NCBI GenBank assembly: GCA_964585475.1
Contig: CAZPDF010000002.1
Location: 1,631-65,630 of the forward strand
DNA from: an uncultured Candidatus Saccharibacteria bacterium
Lineage (GTDB): Bacteria > Patescibacteriota > Minisyncoccia > Sungbacterales > HO2-52-23
DNA: 64,000 nucleotides
Direction: 5' to 3'
The translations under genes and the position numbers were made by a program. A model generated the notes under the pieces. The model did not search any database. It had not been told where the DNA came from and was given only the letters and a program-made list of their open reading frames with translations. Positions 8,995-62,613 of the stretch are shown here, one piece after another; position 1 is the first letter of the stretch; each line of letters begins with the position of its first letter.

Positions 8995-9121
8995 CCCCGT
9001 CACTAAATTTTGACTTTTGTTATGCTACCCCGAATAAGCCGGCGAGATGGACACCGCAACGGGTTAAATTATAGATTGCCTCGTTGTGTAGAATGGCAGC
9101 AGTCAAAATTTTAGTGCGGGG
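8995..9121. repeat. MITE-like palindromic element, CCCCGCAC-TIR family
   Basis: 5' arm ccccgtcactaaattttgac and 3' arm gtcaaaattttagtgcgggg are near-perfect reverse complements about 90 bp apart; followed by hairpin gcggggtggataaaccccgc. Confidence 0.55.
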
Positions 9122-14493: not shown

Positions 14494-15233
14494 CCACAAT
14501 GAAATTAACGCAAAATTCTTTAAAAAAAATTCTCTCGCTGGCGGAGAAAATTTTGCGTTCCGGAGGAATCCTGATTTGCCCCACCGATACGGTTTACGGT
14601 ATTTTGGGGGATGCGACTAACCGTGACGCGATAAAGAAAATTTTTGCGCTAAAAACGCGCTCCGCGGAAAAGAAGTTTCCGATTTTTGTGAAAGACATTC
14701 CGACGGCGCGGAAGTTCGCGTATATAGCGGATGCCAAGGCGAAGTTTCTGGAGAAAGTGTGGCTCGCCCCGTTAGAGACAGCCCGCCCCGAAGGCCCTTC
14801 GGGCGCGCAAGCGCGGGCGAGGTCTCTAACGGGGCCAGGGCCCCTCACGGTCGTGTTACATCACAAAGAGAAATTACCTAAAATTTTGACCCCGCACCAG
14901 AGCAAGCTCGGTGCGGGGCAGGCCGGTGGTCTAGGCACCATCGGTATTCGTATCCCGAATCATCCTTTTCTTTTAGAACTTTTGTCCCGTTTAGATTTTC
15001 CGCTGGTTCAGACCTCGGCAAATATTTCCGGAAAGCCCCCGGCAAAAAATATAAAAGAAATTAAGGAATATTTTGGGAAAGAAAGACTAAAACCCGAATT
15101 AATAATTGACGGTGGTCAAATTGATGGAACGCAATCAACGGTTATAGATTTTACAGGCAATGAGCCGATTCTTTTGCGAACCGGCGCGATTTCAAAATTA
15201 GAACTAGACCGATTGCTGAGTGGGCTTGATTAA
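14490..15233 (+). CDS. tsaC: L-threonylcarbamoyladenylate synthase (YrdC/Sua5 family), with in-frame palindromic insertion
   Basis: ILICPTDTVYGILGDA...GIRIPNHPF...VQTSANISGKPPA; insertion at 14767-14834. Confidence 0.8.
   Translation: MTTMKLTQNSLKKILSLAEKILRSGGILICPTDTVYGILGDATNRDAIKKIFALKTRSAEKKFPIFVKDIPTARKFAYIADAKAKFLEKVWLAPLETARPEGPSGAQARARSLTGPGPLTVVLHHKEKLPKILTPHQSKLGAGQAGGLGTIGIRIPNHPFLLELLSRLDFPLVQTSANISGKPPAKNIKEIKEYFGKERLKPELIIDGGQIDGTQSTVIDFTGNEPILLRTGAISKLELDRLLSGLD
14767..14834. repeat. In-frame palindromic element inside tsaC
   Basis: ccccgttagagac-agcccgccccgaaggcccttcgggcgcgcaagcgcgggcga-ggtctctaacgggg has 13-bp perfect terminal IRs plus internal hairpins. It encodes PLETARPEGPSGAQARARSLTGP, an Ala/Arg/Pro low-complexity loop. 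Confidence 0.7.
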
Positions 15234-19292: not shown

Positions 19293-19512
19293 TATTTATT
19301 TGTCTAAATTTTGGATCTCGCTGAAAGCGGGAGAGCAAAATTTAGTAACAAATAAATAACCCCGCATCAATTTTGCCTATGTCTTGCCACGCGGCGTGCG
19401 CGGGCCGAATAGGCCCCTTCCTTAATGGGCGAAGCGCGCCGCCATCAATTCCAGAAATGGGCCGATATTATCCAGGCAAACTTATAACAGTTGCAAAATT
19501 GGTGCTGGGGTT
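19293..19512. repeat. Composite MITE-like element: IR module plus CCCCGCAC-TIR element
   Basis: ttatttatttgtctaaatttt...aaaatttagtaacaaataaataa IR, then 5' arm aaccccgcatcaattttgcc (19358-19376) and 3' arm gcaaaattggtgctggggtt (19493-19512); same organisation as 43108-43306. Confidence 0.55.
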
Positions 19513-22097: not shown

Positions 22098-22424
22098 GTT
22101 CCACCCCGTTATCTATTCCATTCCCACCATATCACTGTTTGTGGATACAGAAAAGCCGGTAGCAAGTCCGGGGTTCTATATGGGTGAGAAGGGAGTTGCT
22201 GCCCAAATAAATTTGGGCGAGCCTCGCCCCGATTAAAATCGGGGCGGGAACCCGCCCGTTCAGATGCCGCGGGAGAGAGTTGAACTCTCACGGGGTTGCC
22301 CCCAATGGATTTTGAGTCCATCGCGTCTGCCAATTTCGCCACCGCGGCACACCGCTATTTTATTATAAAAACGCCCGTTTTTCAATGGTTGAAAATAAAA
22401 GTTCATTGGTTTAAAGTTCAAGTG

Positions 22425-25552: not shown

Positions 25553-25745
25553 CCCCCGGAGAAACTCGGCACCAAAGTTATGGTGCAAAAAATAGGGGAG
25601 AGAGGGAAAATTGTGGTGGAATTTTACCCCCACACCTATTAAACGCAATTGAAATTGGTGCGAAGCACAGCGTTTAATAGGTGTGGGGGTTTATTCGGAC
25701 GAGGAGTTAAGAGGGATTCTTGATAAACTTATTCGAGAGGTATAG
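25553..25745 (+). pseudogene. Diverged duplicate of the parB 3' end, interrupted by a 63-bp palindromic element
   Basis: PEKLGTKVMVQKIGERGKIVVEFY-[insert]-SDEELRGILDKLIREV* versus genuine ParB LGTKVRVEKLGERGKIVVEFYSDEELRGILDKLIREV* at 24160-24277. Confidence 0.6.
25627..25689. repeat. Palindromic element, CCCCCACACCTATT family, inside the parB-tail remnant
   Basis: cccccacacctattaaacgc-aattgaaattggtgcgaagcaca-gcgtttaataggtgtggggg has 20-bp perfect TIRs; second family member at 58200-58322. Confidence 0.7.
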
Positions 25746-25752
25746 GGGGATA

Positions 25753-25894
25753 CTTGACCCCGCCTTTGAAAAGGACTGCCTGAGGGCAGATACCTATTTT
25801 GGCAGTTAGAGCCTGATCAATCACGTCAGGGTCTTTTTATTAAACCCACTTAACTTTTTAGAATCTGTCCTTTTCAAGGGCGGGGTTGACAAGT
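25753..25894. repeat. About 25-bp imperfect inverted repeat pair flanking a 90-bp hairpin-rich spacer; the right arm carries the -35 of the downstream promoter
   Basis: acttgaccccgcctttgaaaaggac ... gtccttttcaagggcggggttgacaagt. Confidence 0.5.
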
Positions 25895-28748: not shown

Positions 28749-28897
28749 GCCCCGCACCTTTGTCGCGAGATAATAATTTTGCAACACGCTTCGCGCGTCG
28801 AGGGATTGGCTATTCGCCACCGCGTGTTGCGGAAGTTATTTGAGTAGAGGGTTTATCGGACTAGCTCTTCCATCTCGTGGCGACAAAGGTGCGGGGC
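28749..28897. repeat. MITE-like palindromic element, CCCCGCAC-TIR family
   Basis: 5' arm gccccgcacctttgtcgcgaga and 3' arm tcgtggcgacaaaggtgcggggc; the internal block gagggattggctattcgccaccgcg resembles the interior of the copy at 240-393. Confidence 0.6.
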
Positions 28898-28919: not shown

Positions 28920-31028
28920 CTACGCATCTTTCGATGCTTGAAATTTAGAGTCCTTTCGCGGGTCAGTCCAACTGGCATAGTCACAGGCGGGATACCGGGA
29001 ACAGCCAAAAAATATTTTTTTGCGCCTAGTCCAGCGGACTATGACGTCTCCCTCCTTACATTTAGGGCACTTCATGCCGATTGTCTCAGGGACGCTGTTT
29101 TTCAGGGTCTTGGTAGTTTTACACTCGGGGAAGCCGGAGCAGGCGAGAAACTTTCCGAAGCGGCCCAGACGCACCACCATGGGTTTCCCGCATTTTTCGC
29201 AGACCTCCTCGGTTGTTTCGGCGACAGCATGTTTTTTAACGGTGGTGTATTTTTCAGTAAGGCGCCGCGCAAAGGGATCATAAAATTCGCGGACCACCGG
29301 CTGCCAGCCGATTTTCCCCTCGGCAATTTCATCGAGTTCATCCTCCATACGCGCGGTAAATTGGATATCCACGATTTCCGGGAAATGCTCAACTAAGAGG
29401 TCGTTAACCAAGACGCCGGTTTCGGTGGGTTTAAGCAGCCGCCTCTCGATTCTCTCGACATATCCGCGATCCTGCACGGTGGATATTATGGGCGCGTAAG
29501 TTGAGGGCCGCCCGATGCCATATTTTTCAAGGGTTTTGATAAGCGTTGCCTCGGAATATCTTGGTGGGGGTTCGGTGAAATGCTGAAGGGGCTTCAGTTC
29601 CATAAGCTCTAATTTGTCTTGTGGCTTAAGATCAGGCAGGGCCATTTCCGTGAATTTAAGCGGATAAACTTTTAAGAAACCGTCGAATTTCATAATTTGT
29701 CCGGTCGCGCGGAAAGTATGGGTTTTGTCTTTCGTTGCGGCAGCGATATCCACGGCCGTCATGTCGAATATTGCTTCGGGCATCTGGGTCGCTACGAAGC
29801 GCCGCCAGACAAGTTCGTATAGTTTAAATTGGCGTCTCTCTAAAAATTGTTGTACGGATTCCGGGGTTCGCCAGGGATCGGTCGGGCGGATGGCCTCATG
29901 CGCTTCTTGGGCTCTCGCTGTTTTGGTTTTAAAACGGCGGGGCGAGGCAAGAGAATAATTCTTACCAAGCTCTTTTGTTAAAAAAGCGCCGGCTTCTTTA
30001 AGCGAATCCTCGCTTAGATTAACCGAATCGGTTCGCATATAAGTGATGAGTCCAACCGGGCCCTCGCCTAGTTCGACTCCTTCGTAGAGCTGCTGTGCCA
30101 GTACCATGGTTTGTTTGGCTGAGAAACCAAGCCGTTTAAAAGATTCTTGCTGAAGAGTAGAGGTGGTGAAAGGCGGAAGCGGTTTTTTCGCTTGAGCCCG
30201 CTTTTCTACGCGTTCCACGGCCCAGGAGGCGCCGTTAAGTTCTCGAACGATTTTGTCGGCATCGGCCTGCGAAGCTATGCCAAATTTCTCGATGGTATTG
30301 CTGGCGATTTTCACAAGAAGTGCTTCAAATTTTTGTTCATTTTCGTCGCGCGGTTTGAGAAGGGCCGAGATGGTCCAATATTCCTGCGAGTTGAAATTTT
30401 GTATTTCTCGTTCGCGTTCTACAATTAGTCGCACTGCGACCGATTGTACGCGTCCGGCAGAGAGCCCTCGGTATACTTTTTTCCAAAGAAATGGGGAAAG
30501 TTTGTAGCCGACCAAGCGGTCAAGGACCCTGCGTGCCTGCTGGGCGTCCACCCGCTTCATATCAATATCGCGCGGGTTTTTAAGCGCCTCATCAATCGCA
30601 CGTTTAGTAATTTCGTGAAAAACAATCCTTTCTATCGCGGCTTTCGGCTTTCGGCTTTCGGCTTTCGGCTTTTTTGAATTTTCTCCTTTTTGTTGGGAGT
30701 TGGGAGCTGGGAGTTGGGAGCTATCGTTCAGGCCCAGGGCCTGAACGAGATGCCACGCTATGGCTTCTCCCTCGCGATCCTCGTCAGTTGCGAGTATAAT
30801 TTTTTCCGCATGCGCGCTCTCCTTCTTTAGTTTTTTCACCACCGCGGTTGATTTTTTGGGAATCACGTACTGCGGCTCGAAATTGTTCTCTACATCCACC
30901 CCAAGTTTGGATCCAGGCAGGTCGCGGATATGGCCGAAAGAGGACTCCACTACAAAATCGCTCCCGAGGAAGCGGGAGATGGTTCTTGCCTTGGTGGGGC
31001 TTTCCACGATGACTAAGTTTTTGGCCAT
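28920..31028 (-). CDS. topA: DNA topoisomerase I, with in-frame low-complexity insertion in the Toprim region
   Basis: MAKNLVIVESPTKARTISRFLG...DREGEAIAWH...; C-terminal zinc ribbons CEKCGKPMVV...CSGFPEC, CPKC...; insertion NDSSQLPAPNSQQKGENSKKPKAESRKPKAA from the tandem repeats at 30636-30745. Confidence 0.95.
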   Translation of the reverse strand: MAKNLVIVESPTKARTISRFLGSDFVVESSFGHIRDLPGSKLGVDVENNFEPQYVIPKKSTAVVKKLKKESAHAEKIILATDEDREGEAIAWHLVQALGLNDSSQLPAPNSQQKGENSKKPKAESRKPKAAIERIVFHEITKRAIDEALKNPRDIDMKRVDAQQARRVLDRLVGYKLSPFLWKKVYRGLSAGRVQSVAVRLIVEREREIQNFNSQEYWTISALLKPRDENEQKFEALLVKIASNTIEKFGIASQADADKIVRELNGASWAVERVEKRAQAKKPLPPFTTSTLQQESFKRLGFSAKQTMVLAQQLYEGVELGEGPVGLITYMRTDSVNLSEDSLKEAGAFLTKELGKNYSLASPRRFKTKTARAQEAHEAIRPTDPWRTPESVQQFLERRQFKLYELVWRRFVATQMPEAIFDMTAVDIAAATKDKTHTFRATGQIMKFDGFLKVYPLKFTEMALPDLKPQDKLELMELKPLQHFTEPPPRYSEATLIKTLEKYGIGRPSTYAPIISTVQDRGYVERIERRLLKPTETGVLVNDLLVEHFPEIVDIQFTARMEDELDEIAEGKIGWQPVVREFYDPFARRLTEKYTTVKKHAVAETTEEVCEKCGKPMVVRLGRFGKFLACSGFPECKTTKTLKNSVPETIGMKCPKCKEGDVIVRWTRRKKIFFGCSRYPACDYASWTDPRKDSKFQASKDA
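30636..30745. repeat. Tandem heptamer repeats (CGGCTTT x4; GTTGGGAG/CTGGGAG x4) plus a perfect palindrome, in-frame within topA
   Basis: ctttcggctttcggctttcggctttcggctttt...gttgggagttgggagctgggagttgggagct...tcgttcaggcccagggcctgaacga. Confidence 0.75.
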
Positions 31029-43074: not shown

Positions 43075-43100
43075 GTTCCGCATCACACGCGGAACTTTTT
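43075..43100 (+). terminator. rho-independent terminator
   Basis: gttccgcatcacacgcggaac plus ttttt. Confidence 0.7.
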
Positions 43101-43107
43101 AATTATT

Positions 43108-43306
43108 TGTCTAAGTTTTGAAGTCGGAGCGAACAAAACTTAGCAACAAATAATTAACCCCGCACTTATTTTACCACCCAGAACGATATGAAGCTTCCGA
43201 TGGCATGAATCACGACTTACTGTTGCGTGGTGCGTGCGCGAATAGCGCATCCCTCATTGGGCGAAGCACCACGCCGTCCGCTGCCCCGTAAAATAAGTGC
43301 GGGGTC
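43108..43306. repeat. Composite MITE-like element: IR module (ttaattatttgtctaagtttt...aaaacttagcaacaaataattaa) plus CCCCGCAC-TIR element (TIRs 43156-43174 and 43288-43306)
   Basis: 5' arm aaccccgcacttattttac and 3' arm gtaaaataagtgcggggt are reverse complements; same module order, inverted, at 240-473. The 3' TIR abuts the mfd stop. Confidence 0.6.
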
Positions 43307-43310
43307 GAAT

Positions 43311-45338
43311 TCACCCTTTTGCTGTTTCAACTGCATCAGCCAGCATCTGGCAATAAAGATTGAGCCCAACCTTATTGATGGCTCCGGACTGCTCACGTCC
43401 AAGAATATTTCCGGCACCGCGGATTTCAAGATCCCGAAGTGCAATTTGATATCCGCTCCCTAGTTCCGCATATTCTTTGAGAGCATCTAGCCGCTCTAAA
43501 GATTTCTCCGTAAGATGAGGCGGTTTATAAAGGAAGTAGGCGAAGGCCTGGGTTGAAGCGCGACCTATTCTTCCGCGAAGCTGATGCGCTTCGGCCAGGC
43601 CGAGACGCGTGGCGTCATCCACGATTAGGGTATTGGCTGATGAAATATCAAGGCCGTTTTCAATAATGGTAGTAGCCAGCAGCAGATCGGCTTCTTTATT
43701 CCGGAATTTGTCCATGGCGCGCAAAATTTCACGCTCTTTCATCCTACCGTGTATGGTCTCGATCCGCAGCCGTCCGCCGATTTTAAGCGAACTAAGTTTT
43801 TCCCTGACACGCCCGATGGTTTCAATCCTATTATGCAAAAAATAAATCTGACCACCCCGTTTAATTTCAAATTCGATTGCTTTTCGTATGGTTTGGGGCG
43901 AGTAAGGAAGTGCGAGTGTAGCAATCGGCAGGCGCTCCGGCGGCGGGGTCTCGATGAGGGAAAGGTCGCGCAATTTGGCAAGCGCCAAGGAGAGCGTTCG
44001 CGGAATGGGAGTTGCTGAAAGCGAGAGAATATCTATTCCTGCTCGAAGGTTCTTGAAATACTCTTTTTGCTTGACTCCAAAGCGCTGTTCCTCATCAATG
44101 ATTACTAGGCCGAGATCTTTGAATTTTACATCGGGGGAAAGCAAGCGGTGGGTGCCTATGATGCAGTCAATTTTACCCTCGCTCAACTCCCGCAGGATTC
44201 GCGTTTCGTCTCCTCGAGAGATGAGCCGCGAGAGCATGGCCGCAGTTACTGGTAATTGGTTACTAATGCGTTCGTGGAATGTTTTTTCGTGCTGGGAGGC
44301 AAGAATCGTGGTTGGCGCAAGAAGTGCTACCTGCCTGCCCGAGGCAATTACCCGGAGTGCTGCGCGGAGTGCCAGTTCCGTTTTTCCGAAACCAACGTCG
44401 CCGCAAAGAATTCGGTCCATGGGCCTCGTATGCTCAAGGTCGCGCATTATTTCTTCCTCAGCGCGCAATTGGTCTTCCGTCTCTACAAAGGAAAATGTTT
44501 CTTTGAGTTCTCTCTCCAGCATCGCGTCCCCCGCATAAGGCGGACGCTCGGAGGCATGGCGTTTCGCATAAAGCTCCAAAAGTTCGTGCGCGAGTTTCTC
44601 CGCATCTTCTTTTACTCGTCTTTTAGCGGTCTGCCATATTGTTCCGCCGAGCCGATGGATTCTCGGGGTTTCGAATCCCACATAGGGCGAAAGGCGGTCT
44701 TTTTGATCGGTCGGCACGTAGAGGCGGTCGGGTTCGGCATTCGGCCGGGGGGCCGCATATTCAATTATGAAAAAATCCGAAGCACGAAATCCGAAATCGT
44801 TTTGGAATTTTGAATTTTGAATTTCGGATTTGTTTCGGTTTTCGGATTTCGTATTTAGGATTTCCGCGGCCGTGCCGCGGTATATTCCGATGCCGTGGTC
44901 TACATGCACCACATAACTTCCTGGCGGAAGTTTTTCAATTGTTTGCGTACGGACAAATTTGGGTTTTACTTTCTCCGCGGTTTCCGGACGCTCGCTTATC
45001 GAATCAATTGTGTTTCCCGCAAATTCAATGAGGTAGGGTGTTTCTGCATTGATCGGCCAGAGCTCAATAATTCCTCCGCGAACCGCAAATACGCCTCGGC
45101 CCGGTACTGTTTGCGCCCGCTCGTATCCAAGATCAATCAATTTTCTTGTAAATTCCGAGGGTTTTAGAACGAGGTCCGTTTCTATAAAGAAGGCATTGCC
45201 ACGCCACCAGAGATTGGTTGAAGCAGCTTTTTTTATCGAGGCGCGATTTTCTTTAAACCATAAAGCACCCCTTTCCAGATTCTGGGGGGTGAGTGACACG
45301 ATTAGGAGCTCGGTAATTTCCGGCGGTCCGGTTGACAT
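43311..45338 (-). CDS. mfd: transcription-repair coupling factor Mfd (short form lacking the N-terminal UvrB-homology region), with in-frame low-complexity insertion
   Basis: Helicase motifs GDVGFGKTELALRAA, DEEQRFGV, superfamily-2 C-terminal domain; start at MSTGPPEITELLIV; insertion SENRNKSEIQNSKFQNDFGFRASDF from the repeats at 44770-44880. Confidence 0.85.
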   Translation of the reverse strand: MSTGPPEITELLIVSLTPQNLERGALWFKENRASIKKAASTNLWWRGNAFFIETDLVLKPSEFTRKLIDLGYERAQTVPGRGVFAVRGGIIELWPINAETPYLIEFAGNTIDSISERPETAEKVKPKFVRTQTIEKLPPGSYVVHVDHGIGIYRGTAAEILNTKSENRNKSEIQNSKFQNDFGFRASDFFIIEYAAPRPNAEPDRLYVPTDQKDRLSPYVGFETPRIHRLGGTIWQTAKRRVKEDAEKLAHELLELYAKRHASERPPYAGDAMLERELKETFSFVETEDQLRAEEEIMRDLEHTRPMDRILCGDVGFGKTELALRAALRVIASGRQVALLAPTTILASQHEKTFHERISNQLPVTAAMLSRLISRGDETRILRELSEGKIDCIIGTHRLLSPDVKFKDLGLVIIDEEQRFGVKQKEYFKNLRAGIDILSLSATPIPRTLSLALAKLRDLSLIETPPPERLPIATLALPYSPQTIRKAIEFEIKRGGQIYFLHNRIETIGRVREKLSSLKIGGRLRIETIHGRMKEREILRAMDKFRNKEADLLLATTIIENGLDISSANTLIVDDATRLGLAEAHQLRGRIGRASTQAFAYFLYKPPHLTEKSLERLDALKEYAELGSGYQIALRDLEIRGAGNILGREQSGAINKVGLNLYCQMLADAVETAKG
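44770..44880. repeat. Low-complexity GAAATCCGAAAT / GAATTTTGAATTT repeats in-frame within mfd
   Basis: gaaaaaatccgaagcacgaaatccgaaatcgttttggaattttgaattttgaatttcggatttgtttcggttttcggatttcgtatttaggatttc. Confidence 0.65.
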
Positions 45339-47131: not shown

Positions 47132-48574
47132 ATGCCTAAAATCAAGTCTTCGCCAAATGAATATCTGGCTGAATTCGATCGCATGCCGCAGGAAGAGAGG
47201 CAGATAGGACGCATACGTAAATCCTTGGAAGCGCTCGCCGAATTTTACGGTTTCGAAAAAATTTCTACATCCATCGTAGAAAATTATCGCGTGTTCCTGC
47301 CACTCTTGCGAGCCGGAGTTCTTGGCGAAAACTTGCCGGTGTTTGGCAAGACCAAGGTAGGAGCAGAAATTTTCCTGCGGCCGGCCGGAGTACTCGGGGT
47401 TTTGCGCTCCTACATGTCGCAGAAGATGAATGACCTGCCTCACCCTTTGCGTTTTTCTTTTGAGGGGGAGCGTTACTCTCTTGCCTCCCACGGACACGGT
47501 TCCAAAATATATAGCCGCCCCGAGTGGGGGATTATGATGATTGGAGAAGAAGGGCCGATTGCCGAAGCGGAGATCATACAGGTAATCTGGAAGGCGATTC
47601 ACGAATCGGGACTCGATTTGGGCGAATTAGCGCTTCGCGTAAACGCAACCGGCTGTTCGGTCTGCCGCTCGTCTTTTCGCTCTTCTCTCAATTCTTATTT
47701 CCGCACTCGTTCCGGGCGCATGTGCAAAAATTGCAGGAGACTGTCCAAACGTAATCCTACAAAAATTCTTCTTTGCGAAGAAGAGAAATGCAAGGTACTT
47801 TTCAGCCACGCCCCGCAGGTCCTTGACTTTTTATGCGAAGCGTGCAAGAAACATTTGAGGGGATTTCTGGAGTTTCTGGACGAGGTGGGCATTGCGTATT
47901 TTCTTGACCCCAAGCTTTTTAAAGACGGCTCCTGGTTTAACACCCTTATTTTTGAAGCGGTAGTGAGGCCGAAAGCGGCGGCTCCAGTGGAGGGTGAAGT
48001 GATAGCGAGTACCCCACAATTTATCCCCCCACCTTCTCGAATACCTCACGGTCTTGCTGCCGGGACGGAGGGTAATTTACAATCCTTCCCGCGGGGTGCT
48101 GAACCCCATGAGAAGGCGGGGGGATTTATTTTGGCCGAGGGCGGCCGGGTTAGTCATGCCGCCGAAATTATGGTCGGGAGGCGTCTGGATGTAGCGAGCG
48201 CCTCTTTCTTTTTCGATACATGGGTCTTGATGCTTGCGAGTGCCAGGAATCTTGTAGGGAAAGAGGAGGAGAGGCCTAAAGTGTTTCTTACTCAACTCGG
48301 GGAACTGGCTAAACGTAAAAGTTTGGTGCTTCTTGAGACGCTGCGAAAGGGTGGCGTTGGGGTACGGGAATCTCTTGGCCGTGATTCAATCAAATCACAG
48401 TTAACAGTTGCCGGACGCGTAGGGGCCGAAATTGCTCTGATTCTTGGCCAGAAAGAGGCGCTGGACAATACCATTATTGTCCGTGAGGTAAGCTCGGGGA
48501 TTCAGGAGACGATACCACAAGACAAATTGATAGAGTTTTTAAAGAAGAAACTAAAGGCTTCGCCCAAAAATTGA
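47132..48574 (+). CDS. histidyl-tRNA synthetase-like class II aaRS (HisS/HisZ family), divergent with a Cys-rich insertion
   Basis: LRPAGVLGVLRSY resembles the HisRS motif-2 region; C-terminal anticodon-binding-like domain; central CSVC...CKNC...CEEEKC...CEAC cluster; canonical motif 3 not evident. Confidence 0.5.
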   Translation: MPKIKSSPNEYLAEFDRMPQEERQIGRIRKSLEALAEFYGFEKISTSIVENYRVFLPLLRAGVLGENLPVFGKTKVGAEIFLRPAGVLGVLRSYMSQKMNDLPHPLRFSFEGERYSLASHGHGSKIYSRPEWGIMMIGEEGPIAEAEIIQVIWKAIHESGLDLGELALRVNATGCSVCRSSFRSSLNSYFRTRSGRMCKNCRRLSKRNPTKILLCEEEKCKVLFSHAPQVLDFLCEACKKHLRGFLEFLDEVGIAYFLDPKLFKDGSWFNTLIFEAVVRPKAAAPVEGEVIASTPQFIPPPSRIPHGLAAGTEGNLQSFPRGAEPHEKAGGFILAEGGRVSHAAEIMVGRRLDVASASFFFDTWVLMLASARNLVGKEEERPKVFLTQLGELAKRKSLVLLETLRKGGVGVRESLGRDSIKSQLTVAGRVGAEIALILGQKEALDNTIIVREVSSGIQETIPQDKLIEFLKKKLKASPKN

Positions 48575-48605: not shown

Positions 48606-48716
48606 TTTAGCCCAGCACTTATTCTACTGTAAAGACCAAATGATAATACAAAAAGTTTGCAGCATTAAACTTCTAATCTTTACGCCATCTTTGTAGTAGA
48701 ATAAGTGCTGGGCTAA
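48606..48716. repeat. MITE-like palindromic element (variant TIR AGCCCAGCACTTATTCTACT)
   Basis: ttagcccagcacttattctact ... agtagaataagtgctgggctaa; perfect 22-bp TIRs flanking 67 bp. Confidence 0.6.
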
Positions 48717-48741: not shown

Positions 48742-48820
48742 TTACCACACGAATCCACAAATGACTCGACAGACTCACTGTAGATAATTAGTGGATTAGT
48801 GCGCACATTAGTGGATTGGT
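48742..48820. promoter_or_regulatory. Cluster of four DnaA-box-like 9-mers ((T/C/G)AATCCAC(A/T/G)), two per strand
   Basis: ctaatccacg, cgaatccaca, ttagtggattag (RC ctaatccactaa), ttagtggattgg (RC ccaatccactaa); each is one mismatch from TTATCCACA. Confidence 0.4.
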
Positions 48821-48829
48821 GTACAGTGC

Positions 48830-49246
48830 ATGGACTGCCTTTTCTGCAAAATCGCCGCAGGCGAAATTGGCTCCGAGGTTATATATGAGGACACGGAGGT
48901 AAAGGTTTTCAAAGACCTTCACCCCAAAGCCCCGGTGCATCTGCTCGTTATTCCTAAAACTCACATTCAGTCCATTGCGCATCTGGACCCCGCACCTTTT
49001 GTGGACTGCGCTTCGCGCGGGGACTCACACTTAGTCCACAAAAGGTGCGGGGTGGAAGCCGACCAACAGTGTTATATAATCGCCAAACTGATTTATGCCG
49101 CCAAGAACGCTGCCGCGGATCAGGGATTGAAAGGATATAAATTAGTGTTTAATGTGGGGCGGGAAGGAGGGCAGGTGATAGATCATCTGCATCTGCATTT
49201 GCTTGGTGGATGGGGAAGCGAGGGTGAGAGGAGTATAAATGTTTAG
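48830..49246 (+). CDS. HIT-family (histidine triad) nucleotide hydrolase, with in-frame palindromic insertion
   Basis: HLLVIPKTHI...; HLHLHLLGG triad; insertion at 48988-49052. Confidence 0.8.
   Translation: MDCLFCKIAAGEIGSEVIYEDTEVKVFKDLHPKAPVHLLVIPKTHIQSIAHLDPAPFVDCASRGDSHLVHKRCGVEADQQCYIIAKLIYAAKNAAADQGLKGYKLVFNVGREGGQVIDHLHLHLLGGWGSEGERSINV
48988..49052. repeat. In-frame palindromic element (CCCCGCACC TIR, MITE-family-like) inside the HIT gene
   Basis: ccccgcaccttttgtggac-tgcgcttcgcgcggggactcacacttag-tccacaaaaggtgcgggg has 19-bp perfect TIRs. It encodes DPAPFVDCASRGDSHLVHKRCGV between the conserved HIT segments. Confidence 0.75.
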
Positions 49247-49262
49247 ATCTTTACGAAATAAG

Positions 49263-49312
49263 AATCCGTACGAATGTACGAATTCGTAAATTCGTAAAAA
49301 TTCGTATTTCGT
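49263..49312. repeat. Low-complexity TTCGTAAA-type direct repeats upstream of rpsU
   Basis: cgtacgaatgtacgaattcgtaaattcgtaaaaattcgtatttcgtaaatg. Confidence 0.6.
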
Positions 49313-49318
49313 AAATGT

Positions 49319-52174: not shown

Positions 52175-52590
52175 AGACCGATCTTGTTAAAAAAGTGTGG
52201 CCGTTACTGCCGCGAATTTTATTACGGCAACTCCCGAGAAAAATTGAGATAGTTTCGGTGGCCGAGAAAAGATCTCGACTCCTTAACTTGATTTATCGCC
52301 GAAAGAATAAACCCGCCAACGTTTTATCTTTCCTCTATGGCCTGGACGTGTCCCGTCGAAGCCGACAGGCGAAGGCGGATTACGGAGAGATCTTGATATG
52401 CCCCGTACTCATCCGCCGCGAAGCCAAAAAACAAGGAAATACCTATAAATATCAGATGACTTGGATGGTGCTGCATGGTATGATACACTTGGCGGGATTG
52501 CATCATGAGGAATCCCGAAGGTTGGCAGAACGGGTAGAGAAATTGGAGCATAGCATACTGCGTAAATTATCCAGTCAAGCGAAACTCTAA
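52171..52590 (+). CDS. ybeY: rRNA maturation endoribonuclease YbeY
   Basis: HGMIHLAGLHHE (H..H....H zinc motif). Confidence 0.85.
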   Translation: MKTDLVKKVWPLLPRILLRQLPRKIEIVSVAEKRSRLLNLIYRRKNKPANVLSFLYGLDVSRRSRQAKADYGEILICPVLIRREAKKQGNTYKYQMTWMVLHGMIHLAGLHHEESRRLAERVEKLEHSILRKLSSQAKL

Positions 52591-52700
52591 GTTCAAAACT
52601 CTAAACTCTAATCAAGTTCAAAGTTCCAAGATCAAAATTCAAATACGGATATTTTGGGTTTTGAGTTTAAAGTTTTCTTAGAGTTTAGAATTTGGAGTTT
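52580..52700. repeat. Intergenic low-complexity inverted repeat of the AAACTCTAAACTCT / TTCAAAATTCAAAT type
   Basis: gttcaaaactctaaactctaatcaagttcaaagttccaagatcaaaattcaaatacggatattttgggttttgagtttaaagttttcttagagtttagaatttggagtttagagtttt. Confidence 0.65.
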
Positions 52701-52714
52701 AGAGTTTTATTACT

Positions 52715-57882: not shown

Positions 57883-58083
57883 CAGAAGATTCTCCCAAGA
57901 GACGCTCTACAATCTTTAGCATTTATCATTATTTTTGTCAACCCCGTTAGAAGTTTCTGGAACACATGTATCTTCTTTTTGCGGTGATACTTTCTGATGC
58001 ATTTTTGTTGTTGTTTACGTGAGCATAAAAAATGTTGAAATTTTTTATGTCATAAACTTCTAATTGGGTCAAGGACTCATTAC

Positions 58084-58092: not shown

Positions 58093-58199
58093 GAATTTTT
58101 TTGACTGGGCATGGCACCGCGATATAATTAAGCTAACAACCTTAGCTACCAAGAAATTTTTCGAAAATTCTCTTTCGTCCGGGCGGTCAGCCCCCACAC

Positions 58200-58322
58200 C
58201 TATTTTGAACTGCGGTATACGTATTTAGCGGATGTTCTTGAGAACTGCGGCCACAAGCCCGGTGTCGATAGAATCCCAGTGCGTAGTCTGCAGTTTCTGA
58301 TTGTTCAAAATAGGTGTGGGGG
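58200..58322. repeat. Palindromic element, CCCCCACACCTATT family, immediately upstream of nrdJ
   Basis: cccccacacctattttgaac ... gttcaaaataggtgtggggg; 20-bp perfect TIRs flanking 83 bp; sibling at 25627-25689. Confidence 0.7.
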
Positions 58323-58365
58323 CACGCCGAGGAGGGCGGAGGAGAATTTTTGTCAAGAAACGTAC

Positions 58366-61300
58366 ATGACACGGATCCTTCAAGACCAAAGAACAGAAGA
58401 GCATAAAGCAGCTCGACACCCGCTTCCTTTGAAGCGGCTTTTTACTAAAGAAGGATCGCACCCCTTCGACGGGGTTGGGTGGAAGAAAGTGAAAGTTACC
58501 GTGCGCGGCATCAACGGTCACGTTGAGGAACGGGAACTTGAATTTCCGGATTTTTGGTCGGAGAACGCCGCAATCATTGCGGGCTCCAAATATTTTCGCG
58601 GCCGCATCGGGTCTCCGGAGCGAGAAATATCAGCACGCGAGATGATCCGCCGGGTTTCCGAAACTATCAGCGGCTGGGGTTTTAATCTCGGATACTTTGA
58701 TACCCAGGATGATGCGCAAATTTTTGGAGAGGAACTCGCGCATATACTTCTCCACCAAAAAGCCGCTTTTAATTCTCCGGTCTGGTTTAACGTTGGAATA
58801 GAGTCTCCTCCGCAGTGTTCCGCCTGTCAGCCGTACCGAGCGCTGGTAAGTACGCCCTCCGGATTTTTCCCGATTGGAGAAATCGTAGAAAAAAATCTTT
58901 TGGGACTGCCGGTATACGATTCACAAGGCATTACGCGGGTTATTGCCGTAAAAAATAACGGAGTAAAAAATGTTTATAAAATCTGTCTTCGTAACGGAAC
59001 TTTTATAGAAGCCACCGGAGACCATTTGATCAAAGCAGCGCGCGAAAGAAGAACACGATCGCAGTGGATTCGCGTTGACGAACTGAGTGAAGGAATGCGG
59101 CTACATTTGTATCCGCATAGAGAAATTCTACAGAAGCAAATTTTGGCGCCTGCTATGCAGGATTTGGTTAGTAGTGCGGCCGCGAATTCGAATGTTATTA
59201 CCGCAGCACCTCCGCTAGTTTCGCTTAAAAATTCACAAGTGGAGATTGGTGAAGCGGCGCTTGCCGGATGGCTGCAGGCGGATGGGTTTGTGGGGCAGTA
59301 TCAAACAGGAACCAATCGTTCCTTGACCATAGAGTTTATGGCAGTGACTCCCGAGGAAAAGCAGTGGATAGAGATGCATCTTAATACCGTATTTCCTTAC
59401 GTTCATCGGAAAGTACGTATCACCAAGACCAAAGCGGGAACTCCCATAACGAGGATTCGCCTGTACGGTGAATCGCTGCGTTCTTTTGTAGAAAAGTATG
59501 AGCTTTTGAAGAGACGTCAGGCTATCCGTGTGCCCCAGGCGCTTTGGAAGAGTCCGCCGCAGGTTAGCAGTGCATATTTGAAGAGCGTCTTTCAGGGTGA
59601 AGGATTTGTACATATGCGAGAACGGTCGGTTCACGTCGCCTTTGACACCATCAGCCAGGAATGGATGCATGATGTACAAATACTTTTATATGGACTTGGT
59701 ATTTATTCGCGCATTCGGCATAAAAAAGAACCTCGTTCTAACCGCAGCGATCTCTATGAACTTGATATCAGTTATGGAGGTGAACGAAAAAAATTCGCTG
59801 ACCGCATCGGATTTATAAGCCAAGAAAAACAGGATAAGTTAAATGCCTCACTGGAAATTGATCGTCAGAAGAACGTCCCCGATCTTCGAGAGGAAGAGAT
59901 TGTCCATATCGAGCAGTTGGGCGAAGAGGTGGTATACGATATTCAAACCGAGAGCGGTGAATATTTAAGCAATAACGTTGCTGTTCATAATTGTTTTATA
60001 CTTTCGGTCGAGGACAACATGGAATCGATCCTGCAATGGATTTACACCGAGGGCATGATTTTCAAGCGCGGATCCGGCGCGGGGATAAATCTTTCCACTC
60101 TTCGCTCAAGCCACGAGACGTTGTCCAAAGGCGGCCATTCTTCCGGTCCGGTATCTTTCATGAGAGGAGCGGATGCGGTTGCCGGCATGATTGCCTCCGG
60201 CGGATCAACCAGGCGTGCGGCAAAAATGGTTGTGCTGAATGCCGACCACCCGGACGTTATGAGATTCATACGTTCGAAGTCCGAGGAAGAAAAAAAAGTT
60301 CGGGCGCTGATTGCGGCAGGATATAATATGTATGATTTGAATAATGACGCTTGGAACTCGATTCAATATCAAAACGCGAATAATTCGGTAAGAGTCACGG
60401 ATGAATTTATGAATGCCGTTGAGGGCGATGAGAAATGGACCACGCGATATGTTACCACCGGCAAGGTGACCGAGGAAGTCCGGGCGCGCGATCTTATGCG
60501 CGCGATTGCCCAAGCCGCCTGGGATTCCGGAGATCCGGGGATGCAGTATGACACCACTATCAATCGCTGGCATACGGCTTCAAACACGGGCCGCATAAAC
60601 GCCTCTAACCCGTGCGCCGAATACATGCACCTTGATGATTCCGCCTGCAACCTTGCCTCGATCAACCTTCTGCGGTATTTGAATCGGGACGGGACTTTTA
60701 ACGTGCGCGATTTCATCCATACGGTGGATATCATGACTTTGGCGCAGGAAATCATAGTTGATTCTTCAAGCTATCCCACGGAAAAAATCGCTAAAAACGC
60801 GCATGAATTCCGGCAGCTGGGCTTAGGTTATGCCAATTTGGGCGCACTTCTTATGACTTGGGGCTTGCCCTATGACTCGGAAGAAGCGCGCCACACAGCA
60901 GCTTCCATAACCGCGCTTATTTGCGGGGAGGCGTATCGCTATTCTGCCGAGATTGCCAAACGCATGGGTCCTTTTCCCGGATACAAATTTAATAAAGCGC
61001 CGATGTCAAATGTCCTGGTCATGCATCGCGACTCGTTCGGAAGGGTGAGGGAGACGCGGGTTACGGATCGCGAGATATATCGTGCCGCAAAAAAAGTATG
61101 GGAGGAGGCCGTGGCTATGGGCAAGAAATACGGAGTTCGCAATTCGCAGGTTACGGTTATAGCCCCCACCGGAACCATCGCCCTTATGATGGATTGCGCA
61201 ACCACCGGGGTGGAACCTGAATTTGCGCTGGTGAAAATCAAAAATCTCGTCGGGGGTGGAACGATGAAATTCGTAAATACCGCCGTGCCGGATGCTCTTT

Positions 61301-62244
61301 TGCACCTCGGGTATCTTGAGGAGGAAGTTGGTGCGATTGTCTTTTACATTGAAAAAAACGGAACGATTGAGGGCGCGCCGGGATTAAAAGAGGAGCATTT
61401 GGCGGTTTTTGATTGCGCGGTAAAACCTGCAGGTGGAAAGCGATCAATCGCCTGGCAGGGACATGTAAAAATGGTGGGAGCAGTGCAGCCCTTTATCTCG
61501 GGAGCAATTTCAAAAACCTTCAATATGCCGCACGAGACCACGGTTGAAGAAATTATGCAGGCCTACACTATGGGTTGGAAATTGGGACTTAAGGCCTTTG
61601 CCGTCTATCGCGACGGATCAAAAGCGGCCCAGCCCTTGGTAACTGCCTCCGGGCAGGGCGGCGGGTCTTTCGAGCGAAAACCCGCGCGCAGGAAACTTCC
61701 TCCAACCCGGCCCTCCGAGACCCACAAATTCTCGATTGCCGGGCATGAAGGATATTTGACTTACAGCACTTTTGAGAATGGCGATTTGGCCGAAATTTTT
61801 ATCCGTATGTCAAAACAGGGCTCGACTTTGGCAGGGCTCTTGGATGCATTCGCGATTGCGATTTCGATCGCGCTTCAGCACGGGGTTCCTTTGAAAATTT
61901 TGGTGCGAAAATTTGCCTACGGCAGGTTTGAGCCGGCAGGATACACCGAAAATGCGGCAATCCAAATTGCAACCTCCATTACCGACTACATCTTCCGCTA
62001 TCTTGCGCTTAGGTTTTTGTTGCCGCAGGATTTGGATGAATTGGGAATTAAAGCGCCTCCCAAGGAAGTGGAGGCGATGACCAAAACGCTCAACGGGCTA
62101 CTGGAGGCGCGCGAGAAATCTTTGCCGGATCCGGATCGGCTCGTTTATGCCGATAGCGTATGCCGCGAGTGCGGAGGAATGATGATTCAGACCGGCGCCT
62201 GCAAAACCTGTTTTAGATGCGGAGCGACGTCTGGGGGTTGTTAA
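58366..62244 (+). CDS. nrdJ: class II (adenosylcobalamin-dependent) ribonucleotide reductase NrdJ, interrupted by an intein
   Basis: Extein motifs: ...SPVWFNVGIESPPQCSA|CFILSV... (active-site Cys loop), GSGAGINLSTLRSSHE, NPCAEYMHLDDSACNLASINL, C-terminal CRECGG...CKTCFRCG zinc ribbon; start ATG 58366 is tentative. Confidence 0.9.
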   Translation: MTRILQDQRTEEHKAARHPLPLKRLFTKEGSHPFDGVGWKKVKVTVRGINGHVEERELEFPDFWSENAAIIAGSKYFRGRIGSPEREISAREMIRRVSETISGWGFNLGYFDTQDDAQIFGEELAHILLHQKAAFNSPVWFNVGIESPPQCSACQPYRALVSTPSGFFPIGEIVEKNLLGLPVYDSQGITRVIAVKNNGVKNVYKICLRNGTFIEATGDHLIKAARERRTRSQWIRVDELSEGMRLHLYPHREILQKQILAPAMQDLVSSAAANSNVITAAPPLVSLKNSQVEIGEAALAGWLQADGFVGQYQTGTNRSLTIEFMAVTPEEKQWIEMHLNTVFPYVHRKVRITKTKAGTPITRIRLYGESLRSFVEKYELLKRRQAIRVPQALWKSPPQVSSAYLKSVFQGEGFVHMRERSVHVAFDTISQEWMHDVQILLYGLGIYSRIRHKKEPRSNRSDLYELDISYGGERKKFADRIGFISQEKQDKLNASLEIDRQKNVPDLREEEIVHIEQLGEEVVYDIQTESGEYLSNNVAVHNCFILSVEDNMESILQWIYTEGMIFKRGSGAGINLSTLRSSHETLSKGGHSSGPVSFMRGADAVAGMIASGGSTRRAAKMVVLNADHPDVMRFIRSKSEEEKKVRALIAAGYNMYDLNNDAWNSIQYQNANNSVRVTDEFMNAVEGDEKWTTRYVTTGKVTEEVRARDLMRAIAQAAWDSGDPGMQYDTTINRWHTASNTGRINASNPCAEYMHLDDSACNLASINLLRYLNRDGTFNVRDFIHTVDIMTLAQEIIVDSSSYPTEKIAKNAHEFRQLGLGYANLGALLMTWGLPYDSEEARHTAASITALICGEAYRYSAEIAKRMGPFPGYKFNKAPMSNVLVMHRDSFGRVRETRVTDREIYRAAKKVWEEAVAMGKKYGVRNSQVTVIAPTGTIALMMDCATTGVEPEFALVKIKNLVGGGTMKFVNTAVPDALLHLGYLEEEVGAIVFYIEKNGTIEGAPGLKEEHLAVFDCAVKPAGGKRSIAWQGHVKMVGAVQPFISGAISKTFNMPHETTVEEIMQAYTMGWKLGLKAFAVYRDGSKAAQPLVTASGQGGGSFERKPARRKLPPTRPSETHKFSIAGHEGYLTYSTFENGDLAEIFIRMSKQGSTLAGLLDAFAIAISIALQHGVPLKILVRKFAYGRFEPAGYTENAAIQIATSITDYIFRYLALRFLLPQDLDELGIKAPPKEVEAMTKTLNGLLEAREKSLPDPDRLVYADSVCRECGGMMIQTGACKTCFRCGATSGGC
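58825..59991 (+). mobile_element. 389-aa intein with a LAGLIDADG homing-endonuclease domain inserted at the NrdJ active-site loop
   Basis: Begins CQPYRALVSTPSGFFPIGEIV (block A), TGDHLI (block B, T..H), LAGWLQADGFVG and YLKSVFQGEGFV (two LAGLIDADG motifs), ends VYDIQTESGEYLSNNVAVHN followed by +1 Cys. Removal restores QCSA-CFILSV. Confidence 0.85.
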
Positions 62245-62392: not shown

Positions 62393-62613
62393 ACCGTTTT
62401 TAAATTCTTAAATTTCTGCACCTTAAATTTAAAGGGGTTTTGCATGCCCGCGGTTTTTTGGGGTAGAAAATAAAAAACGGCCTGCCCCCCATCTATTTTA
62501 CTGCTGAGTTTCTAGTGAGCAAAACGAGTGTAAAAGAAGAAGAGCGCCCGCATGGAGACGCTCTTGTCTGGTAAAATAGGTGTGGGGTGCGACTGCACCG
62601 CCTCCTGCTTTGA

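Follow-up and report, generated by a model that had tools for sequence, protein, structure and literature searches.

The HIT gene and its hairpin insert

A gene for a histidine triad (HIT) protein in the window (the whole 64-kb stretch of DNA that was analysed) contains a hairpin-forming segment that is bordered on both sides by the same four nucleotides. Protein matches place this DNA in a Patescibacteria MAG close to Sungbacteria.

48830..49246, + strand: HIT gene, host of the insert, 138 aa (Pfam HIT, 4.3e-20)
48988..49052, no strand assigned: 65-nt hairpin element in HIT, arms CCCCGCACCTTTTGTGGACT / AGTCCACAAAAGGTGCGGGG, the loop retaining GCGCTTCGCGC
48984..48987, no strand assigned: target-site duplication TGGA, left copy (sequence read and empty site in L141)
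49053..49056, no strand assigned: target-site duplication TGGA, right copy (sequence read and empty site in L141)

The arms of the inverted repeat (48987-49007 and 49033-49053) are 21 nt long, 100% complementary and spaced by 25 nt. The chance expectation in 64 kb for a repeat with such perfect arms is ~1e-6. Folded as DNA, the hairpin has a free energy of -28.4 kcal/mol, with z = -9.1 against shuffles. The 65-nt element together with a 4-bp duplication makes 69 nt, i.e. 23 codons, with the peptide DPAPFVDCASRGDSHLVHKRCGV, and it is 23 residues by which the window protein exceeds its orthologs in the alignment. The latter are mostly 114 aa and read SIAHL/EADH, the slash marking where the extra residues lie. 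The alignment of solved HINT structures to the window protein is interrupted exactly at the insert. The filled site reads C-TGGA-[65 nt]-TGGA-A, and an ortholog (L141) has the corresponding empty site, CAC-C-TGGA-ACTG, with a single TGGA (CACCTGGAACTG). In an AlphaFold model residues 54-75 are coil with pLDDT <50, and the HIT fold is retained. The identical protein is encoded in three independent assemblies; the insert is therefore not an assembly chimera or artefact.

A family of CCCCG-ended hairpins

The HIT hairpin has many counterparts. Scans and a covariance model reveal at least 16 copies of a CCCCG-ended hairpin family in the 64 kb (a density of ~1 copy per 4 kb in DNA of ~46-51% G+C), 11 of them intergenic and 5 genic – one in HIT, two in TsaC, one in HisRS and one at a second LeuRS site. 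All sequences compared, here and below, derive from metagenome assemblies. The copies are 29-156 nt in size and have terminal inverted repeats CCCCGCAC / GTGCGGGG within arms of 13-21 nt, the consensus ends being RCCCCG(C/T)...(A/G)CGGGGY. There are 12 occurrences of CCCCGCAC in the window, where 1.7 are expected, and every one is the outer end of a hairpin. The intergenic copies are as follows (R1 is a covariance model built from long intergenic copies only).

242..391, + strand: long copy with core, directly after a stop codon (R1 126 bits; alignment A3)
28750..28896, + strand: long copy with core, stem CCCCGCACCTTTG (R1 123 bits)
43158..43304, - strand: long copy with core (R1 125.7 bits)
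19360..19509, - strand: diverged long copy, core in the opposite half of the loop that the stem encloses (R1 43.7 bits)
25627..25689, no strand assigned: short copy, 63 nt, CCCCCACACC flavour, TTTA/TTTA, loop with GTGCTTCGCAC (repeat search)
25758..25885, no strand assigned: 128-nt copy, TTGA/TTGA duplication (repeat search)
57942..58068, no strand assigned: 127-nt copy, CCCCGTTAGAAG flavour, right arm decayed, TCAA/TCAA (repeat search)
58191..58322, no strand assigned: 132-nt copy, CCCCCACACC flavour, degenerate core, probable leader of the ribonucleotide reductase gene (repeat search and model)
8995..9121, no strand assigned: 127-nt copy, imperfect arms (end-motif scan and model)
48611..48712, no strand assigned: 102-nt copy, CCCAGCAC ends, in the HisRS-HIT spacer (R1 41 bits)
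62485..62587, no strand assigned: 103-nt copy, CCCCACACC flavour (R1 32.6 bits)

The placing of the copy at 58191-58322 in a leader depends on the true start of the ribonucleotide reductase gene, which is probably an ATG ~40 nt downstream of the element. (The reductase itself, class II, 58279-62244, contains a LAGLIDADG intein according to Pfam.)

Stem subtypes are common to long and short copies, and the end flavours CCCCGCACC, CCCCCACACC and CCCCGTTAGA are each found with and without the core of the long form. The short copies have the look of 145-155-nt copies that underwent internal deletion. The HIT insert has its place in this series: its stem CCCCGCACCTTTTG is almost the same as that of the long copy at 28750, and GCGCTTCGCGC in its loop resembles the junction of the long-form core. 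R1 gives it 33 bits on both strands (E ~4e-6). This is about what true long copies score on their reverse strand, which means that only the terminal stem is matched.

Copies in other genes

Four further copies lie in genes.

14767..14834, no strand assigned: TsaC site 1 element, 68 nt, CCCCGTTAGAGAC flavour (GTTAGA flavour) (inverted repeat, ortholog and PDB alignment)
14890..14918, no strand assigned: TsaC site 2 mini-element, 29 nt, CCCCGCACC-11 nt-GGTGCGGGG (R1 19.7 bits)
4459..4490, no strand assigned: LeuRS mini-element, 32 nt, CCCCGCATC...GGTGCGGGG, putative insert (R1 14.6 bits)
48024..48124, no strand assigned: HisRS element, 101 nt, TCCCCCCACC...GGCGGGGGGA, TTTA/TTTA flanks (extra residues here in the ortholog alignment)

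Compared with PDB 9d3h and with many orthologs, TsaC is longer in two places, by 24 residues following KVW and by 11 following KILT. The first corresponds to site 1, where the repeat search finds arms CCCCGTTAGAGAC...GTCTCTAACGGGG at 14767-14834, and where 68 + 4 nt give 72 nt, or 24 codons, with the peptide LAPLETARPEGPSGAQARARSLTG. The second is an 11-residue gap in the alignment with 9d3h and corresponds to site 2 (29 + 4 nt = 33 nt = 11 codons, PHQSKLGAGQA). Both states of site 1 exist among orthologs: it is filled in L017 and L020, TGG-CCCG-[68 nt]-CCCG-GTCCG, and empty in L019, TGGCCCGGTCCG. CTCG and CCAG, which flank site 1 in the window, are decayed copies of CCCG. The LeuRS mini-element makes 32 + 4 nt = 36 nt, 12 codons with the peptide PAPHRAGGSGAG, and that in HisRS 101 + 4 nt = 105 nt, 35 codons.

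A preliminary description of this DNA had reported the hairpins in HIT and TsaC, and had proposed that the former has the terminal-repeat flavour of the intergenic family and links that family to the in-frame insertions. These points hold. The terminal stem is common to HIT and the intergenic copies (as borne out by the 33 bits with R1 and the excess of CCCCGCAC, 12 against 1.7), and 4-bp duplications occur in both classes. The TsaC hairpin at 14767-14834 has the sequence quoted and is a family member, though the second member in the same gene (14890-14918) had been missed. The insert-free orthologs for which the description called do exist, for HIT in L141 and for TsaC in L019.

In an alignment of TsaC orthologs (A4), the proteins P0130, P0134, P0154, P0175, P0127 and P0167 have short inserts at three other positions, e.g. 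VPKPFGPGSRPTEVGLG and VPRPDGRDGGPEGLAK. At the protein level, at which they were seen, these are likely to represent more hairpin insertions.

Target duplication and the frame filter

Among 31 CCCC-ended hairpins from the window and from related loci, 9 are flanked by perfect 4-bp repeats, compared with ~0.12 expected by chance. Such repeats occur with genic and intergenic copies alike. The duplicated 4-mers are TGGA, TTGA, TTTA, TCAA, TGAA and CCCG, each with outer bases that are complementary (YNNR). (The same sites can equally be read as a 2-bp duplication around an element whose ends are RCCCC...GGGGY.) In the window, perfect duplications are TTTA at 25627, TTGA at 25758, TCAA at 57942 and TTTA in HisRS, and HIT relatives contribute TTGA (L004) and TGGA (L006). 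Three related loci illustrate the range of positions. An element with a TGGA duplication splits a terminator hairpin in L011, one with a TGAA duplication is at the start codon of TsaC in L020, and two copies are in tandem in L076, TCAA-E-TCAA-E-TCAA. None of 107 core-bearing elements, mostly of the single-core type, has a target duplication; double-core palindromic copies have one.

The length of the element plus 4 is divisible by 3 for all five genic copies (69, 72, 33, 36 and 105 nt) and for one of the 11 intergenic copies (hypergeometric P ~0.001). All five genic copies are also free of stop codons. Examples of the predicted peptides across insert junctions are ...SIAHLDPAPFVDCASR and KVWLAPLETAR. 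That every genic copy keeps the frame and lacks stops fits selection on translated inserts, not removal at the RNA level.

The long form and its conserved core

Long copies, which are 145-155 nt (147-150 nt in the window), combine a terminal stem of the HIT type with a conserved core. The core is TTCGCCC-n-GGGAT followed by a hairpin with a TATTC loop, and its helices covary across Patescibacteria. Among 12 copies 95% of the cells are paired, with double changes at 16 pairs, a result that no shuffle equals. With 92 distinct copies, pairing is 94%, as against 37-54% with slid partners, and double changes are seen at 30 of 32 pairs (0 of 500 shuffles do as well). Nine loci match the strict long-form pattern. 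They are in named Patescibacteria MAGs, namely of Tagabacteria, of the Parcubacteria group and of records that bear the label Saccharibacteria. The core-only pattern is present in at least 120 groundwater or sediment metagenome contigs. Searched against viral contigs, the core pattern had 0 matches. A phage origin was rejected on this ground, and seven viral 17-mer matches to the stem are not elements by the model. No conserved start codon or ORF was found between long copies on reading their sequences.

Within the loop that the stem encloses, the core lies in the 5′ half, lies in the 3′ half, or is present twice in a palindromic double-core architecture. A 3′-half core or inverted double cores were seen at window 19360-19509, in L034, L052, L058, L067 and L085, in L024, L053, L056 and L087, and in L076 (3731-4042). 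Where two cores are back-to-back and inverted, the whole element is one long palindrome. The L076 example is a tandem pair of identical double-core copies with TCAA between and outside them. At position 4 of the terminal stem (A5 pair 4:250), 27 of ~73 copies have an asymmetric A.G mismatch, left CCCA and right GGGG. Its recurrence suggests that the two element ends are non-equivalent.

Every long copy is followed on its 3′ side by a second hairpin of ~60 nt, e.g. 392-455, 43095-43157 (minus strand) and L012 5386-5445. Its outer stem is AT-rich, its inner stem is of the CTAAATTTT type and its loop contains TTCGC; there is also a 2-nt bulge. In L012 (tuf), L014 (ftsZ) and L016 the start codon of the following gene falls in the 3′ arm of this hairpin, and in the window copies a terminator-like hairpin comes after it.

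Occupied and empty sites among orthologs

One nucleotide position in the HIT gene accommodates either the CCCCGCACC flavour (the window and L004) or the GTTAGA flavour (L005, L006 and L007). TsaC orthologs have five insert sites, and site 1 is occupied by three different versions. The presence of inserts is patchy and non-monophyletic among the orthologs of both genes. In a TsaC tree calculated with the insert columns excluded, filled and empty sequences are interspersed (this is a neighbour-joining tree that is star-like and poorly resolved).

The inserts are much more alike than the genes that contain them. Between the window and its relatives, nucleotide identity for HIT is 88% in the insert and 71% in the rest of the gene, the corresponding values at third positions being 83% and 49%. 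For TsaC site 1 the insert is 96% identical and the rest 65-67%; at third positions, 100% and 44-46%. A transposon that targets TNNA at random is, alone, unable to explain same-position inserts that are 96% identical where silent sites are saturated. Either the same active subfamily re-entered one permissive site, or a more specific process is responsible for copying or retaining the insert.

Nature of the element

The most probable reading, to which a probability of roughly 0.75 is assigned, is that the hairpin in HIT belongs to a MITE-type family, whose members are small, palindromic DNA elements without coding capacity. The elements integrate into DNA, duplicating 4 bp of the target, and land in spacers, in terminator loops, at a start codon and in the interiors of genes. 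In essential genes, only insertions with (length + 4) divisible by 3 would survive selection. The genic inserts, to go by their frame and freedom from stops only, would be translated as disordered surface loops that leave the fold undisturbed. The element itself would act as DNA, probably via its hairpin or cruciform ends, which an enzyme provided in trans would recognise. That the same sites were hit again may reflect the small number of insert-tolerant sites in a small protein. A search of 0.82 Mb (the window and fetched loci) for a transposase or partner gene found none, nor any ORF bounded by the family ends. Long-range pairs of ends that might mark an autonomous element in the same 0.82 Mb were confined to pairs belonging to separate copies and one 2.3-kb pair enclosing rpsB-tsf. 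Similarities of the ends to attC and to IS5 were considered and dropped, as motif order or orientation is wrong.

An unlikely possibility is that the element is more than a passive MITE, namely a Patescibacteria-wide, structure-conserved one that is moved by an unrecognised enzyme (possibly HUH-like and acting on single-stranded DNA, or host-encoded) and homes to defined sites in essential genes, or else that the genic copies are kept for a hairpin function in DNA or mRNA. Homing, or a hairpin function at the nucleotide level, would account for the near-identity of inserts that share a codon position despite saturated silent sites.

Rather unlikely is site-specific homing or short-patch gene conversion, with one defined site per gene or with transfer between lineages by recombination, in place of transposition to loosely defined TNNA sites. 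It would account for the filling of the same nucleotide position by two flavours in HIT and three at TsaC site 1, and for inserts that are 88-96% identical in host genes that are 65-71% identical and have saturated third positions. However, the reconstructed target sites have only YNNR in common, related TsaC genes use five different sites, and other copies are in unrelated spacers, in a terminator loop and at a start codon. Identity also drops sharply at the element ends, and no conversion tract is therefore visible.

It is improbable that the hairpins are functional RNA structures, whether for mRNA stability, pausing or processing or (for the long form) as a non-coding RNA gene, maintained by selection on transcripts. 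Their long-form helices P1, P2 and P4 do covary strongly over ~90 distinct copies, the second hairpin always comes after the long form and holds the next start codon in three loci, and the genic inserts are very highly conserved at the nucleotide level. Yet G.T mismatches (G.U in RNA), which number 49 compared with 62 A.C, are not in excess, orientation is random relative to the flanking genes, and the target duplications are those of a DNA insertion present in many copies per genome. Rfam has no match for the elements (the window at the gathering threshold, and three loci at E <= 1). The lack of a G.T excess, the random orientation and the Rfam result together lead to the structure being read as a feature at the DNA level. 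A 5′ leader or riboswitch role for the long form was rejected because of the random orientation, and an RNA gene is disfavoured by the lack of G.U bias.

Could the inserts be removed before the protein is made, as an intron is, or be bypassed, so that the proteins are unaltered? Hairpins this stable (-43 to -47 kcal/mol as RNA) would impede ribosomes, which speaks for it. Removal would, however, require neither the reading frame nor the freedom from stops that distinguish the five genic copies from the intergenic ones. The genic copies, at only 29-101 nt, contain no motifs of introns or inteins, and Rfam gives no intron match. An intein or self-splicing intron was rejected specifically, since the inserts are 11-35 codons, Pfam finds only host domains and Rfam no intron. 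Removal is thus very improbable.

Ordinary lineage-specific loops, palindromic by chance (Patescibacteria proteins often have lineage-specific insertions), or assembly artefacts are effectively refuted by the ~1e-6 expectation for perfect 21-nt arms, the same ends on intergenic copies, the target duplications with an empty ortholog site and the identical protein in three assemblies.

Relation to known elements

The MITE-type reading accords with several features found here: small non-coding size, terminal inverted repeats, a duplication of fixed length with empty sites, and many copies. Patescibacteria (CPR), whose genomes are tiny, are thought to have few mobile elements. The family has entered at least four essential genes within a single 64-kb stretch. 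Literature searches on MITEs or palindromic insertions in CPR brought up no account of it. New are the family, its host lineage, its abundance, its conserved core and its same-site recurrence; elements of this kind are known.

Among small mobile elements the Correia, RUP and ERIC repeats have TA as target duplication. Together with the Coxiella QMITE and the Correia/NEMIS elements of Neisseria, these bacterial MITEs resemble the present family in being small and ORF-less, with terminal inverted repeats, target duplications, many dispersed copies and internally deleted derivatives. Here the duplication is instead 4 bp of the form YNNR, conservation is superphylum-wide with structural covariation, and the 0.82 Mb yielded no parent insertion sequence that shares the ends. 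Bacterial MITEs, including QMITE, are described as occasionally translated in frame (PMC10969869, PMC5896051).

The closest parallel for genic copies comes from Rickettsia, whose palindromic elements (RPEs) are short palindromes found in spacers and, in frame, in housekeeping genes, with peptides judged compatible with the fold of the host protein (PMC10969869). The likeness extends to the unrelatedness of the housekeeping genes and to the reduced genome. The differences are that the host phylum is another and no sequence relation is known, and that the genic copies here are 29-101 nt while RPEs are ~100-150 bp. The present elements are near-perfect hairpins with a clear 4-bp duplication and a covarying long-form core, and near-identical copies fill the same site in diverged orthologs. 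This would be the second independent case, after Rickettsia, of selfish DNA becoming protein loops in a reduced genome.

REP/BIME elements, which RAYT (HUH) transposases mobilise, are similar as abundant extragenic, covarying hairpins that act as DNA. The long core copies resemble REPs in lacking target duplications. REPs are 20-40 nt in size with a conserved GTAG, and they are not known to enter genes or to create duplications on insertion. The short copies here do have duplications, do sit in genes and have CCCCG ends, and membership of the REP/BIME class was ruled out on these three features.

If the MITE-type reading is correct, the family accounts for some of the puzzling 'extra loops' of CPR proteins, and annotators and users of structure prediction should be cautious, as such loops would be DNA parasites and not functional motifs. 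For finding the mobilising enzyme there are concrete handles in the core and in the 4-bp duplication, and the conserved ends provide a marker for tracing exchange between CPR lineages.

Other inserts and repeats in the window

The preliminary description had grouped with the HIT and TsaC hairpins two further in-frame insertions, in LeuRS and TopA, and had envisaged a single mobile palindromic system for all four. Comparison with solved homologs confirms true insertions at all four positions. A single system is supported for the CCCCG-ended family and does not extend to the LeuRS zinc-knuckle and TopA inserts.

2366..2411, + strand: LeuRS zinc-knuckle, two small adjacent GC hairpins with CCCTAGG ends, inside a 35-residue insert (z = -3.1)
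30633..30725, - strand: TopA insert, ~31 residues after the Toprim domain, with two heptamer arrays (alignment with solved homologs)

For LeuRS, the sequence reported exists and belongs to a real protein insert, but at 2366-2411 rather than 2385-2440. Membership of the family is unsupported, as there is no target duplication at 2366-2411 and no R1 match is listed there at E <= 10. For TopA, the two heptamer arrays (~30639-30670 and 30692-30721, not complementary to each other), a perfect palindrome and a real insert are all present, but the palindrome, 21 nt at 30726-30746, adjoins the insert from outside, encoding the conserved VQALGLN, and the insert is not a family member. The suggested folding of the inserts gave a clear result for HIT (z = -9.1), whereas LeuRS 2385-2440 and the TopA interval as a whole (z = -1.0) fold no better than shuffles. 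At best, the LeuRS zinc-knuckle and TopA inserts represent a different, low-complexity and heptamer-rich class of repeat.

AT-rich imperfect palindromes fill the spacers 48748-48821, 49250-49315, 44770-44863 and 52582-52707, including both flanks of HIT, and are built of heptamer-like units such as AATCCAC, TTCGTAA, AAATCCG and AAACTCT. A heptamer-style repeat is also translated in TopA (30633-30725) and in LeuRS (KSEI.., NSKSQ.., FEILNSKF), and looks like a second repeat class entering genes. The LeuRS ORF (1755-5462, 1235 aa) additionally has embedded alpha/beta-hydrolase-like (~301-411) and NUDIX (624-744) domains identified by Pfam. A 28-nt GC-rich hairpin, CCTCGCCCCGATTAAAATCGGGGCGGGA, at 22222-22249, which is a weak match to the model, adjoins a tRNA-Leu gene (22263-22349) and is probably its terminator.
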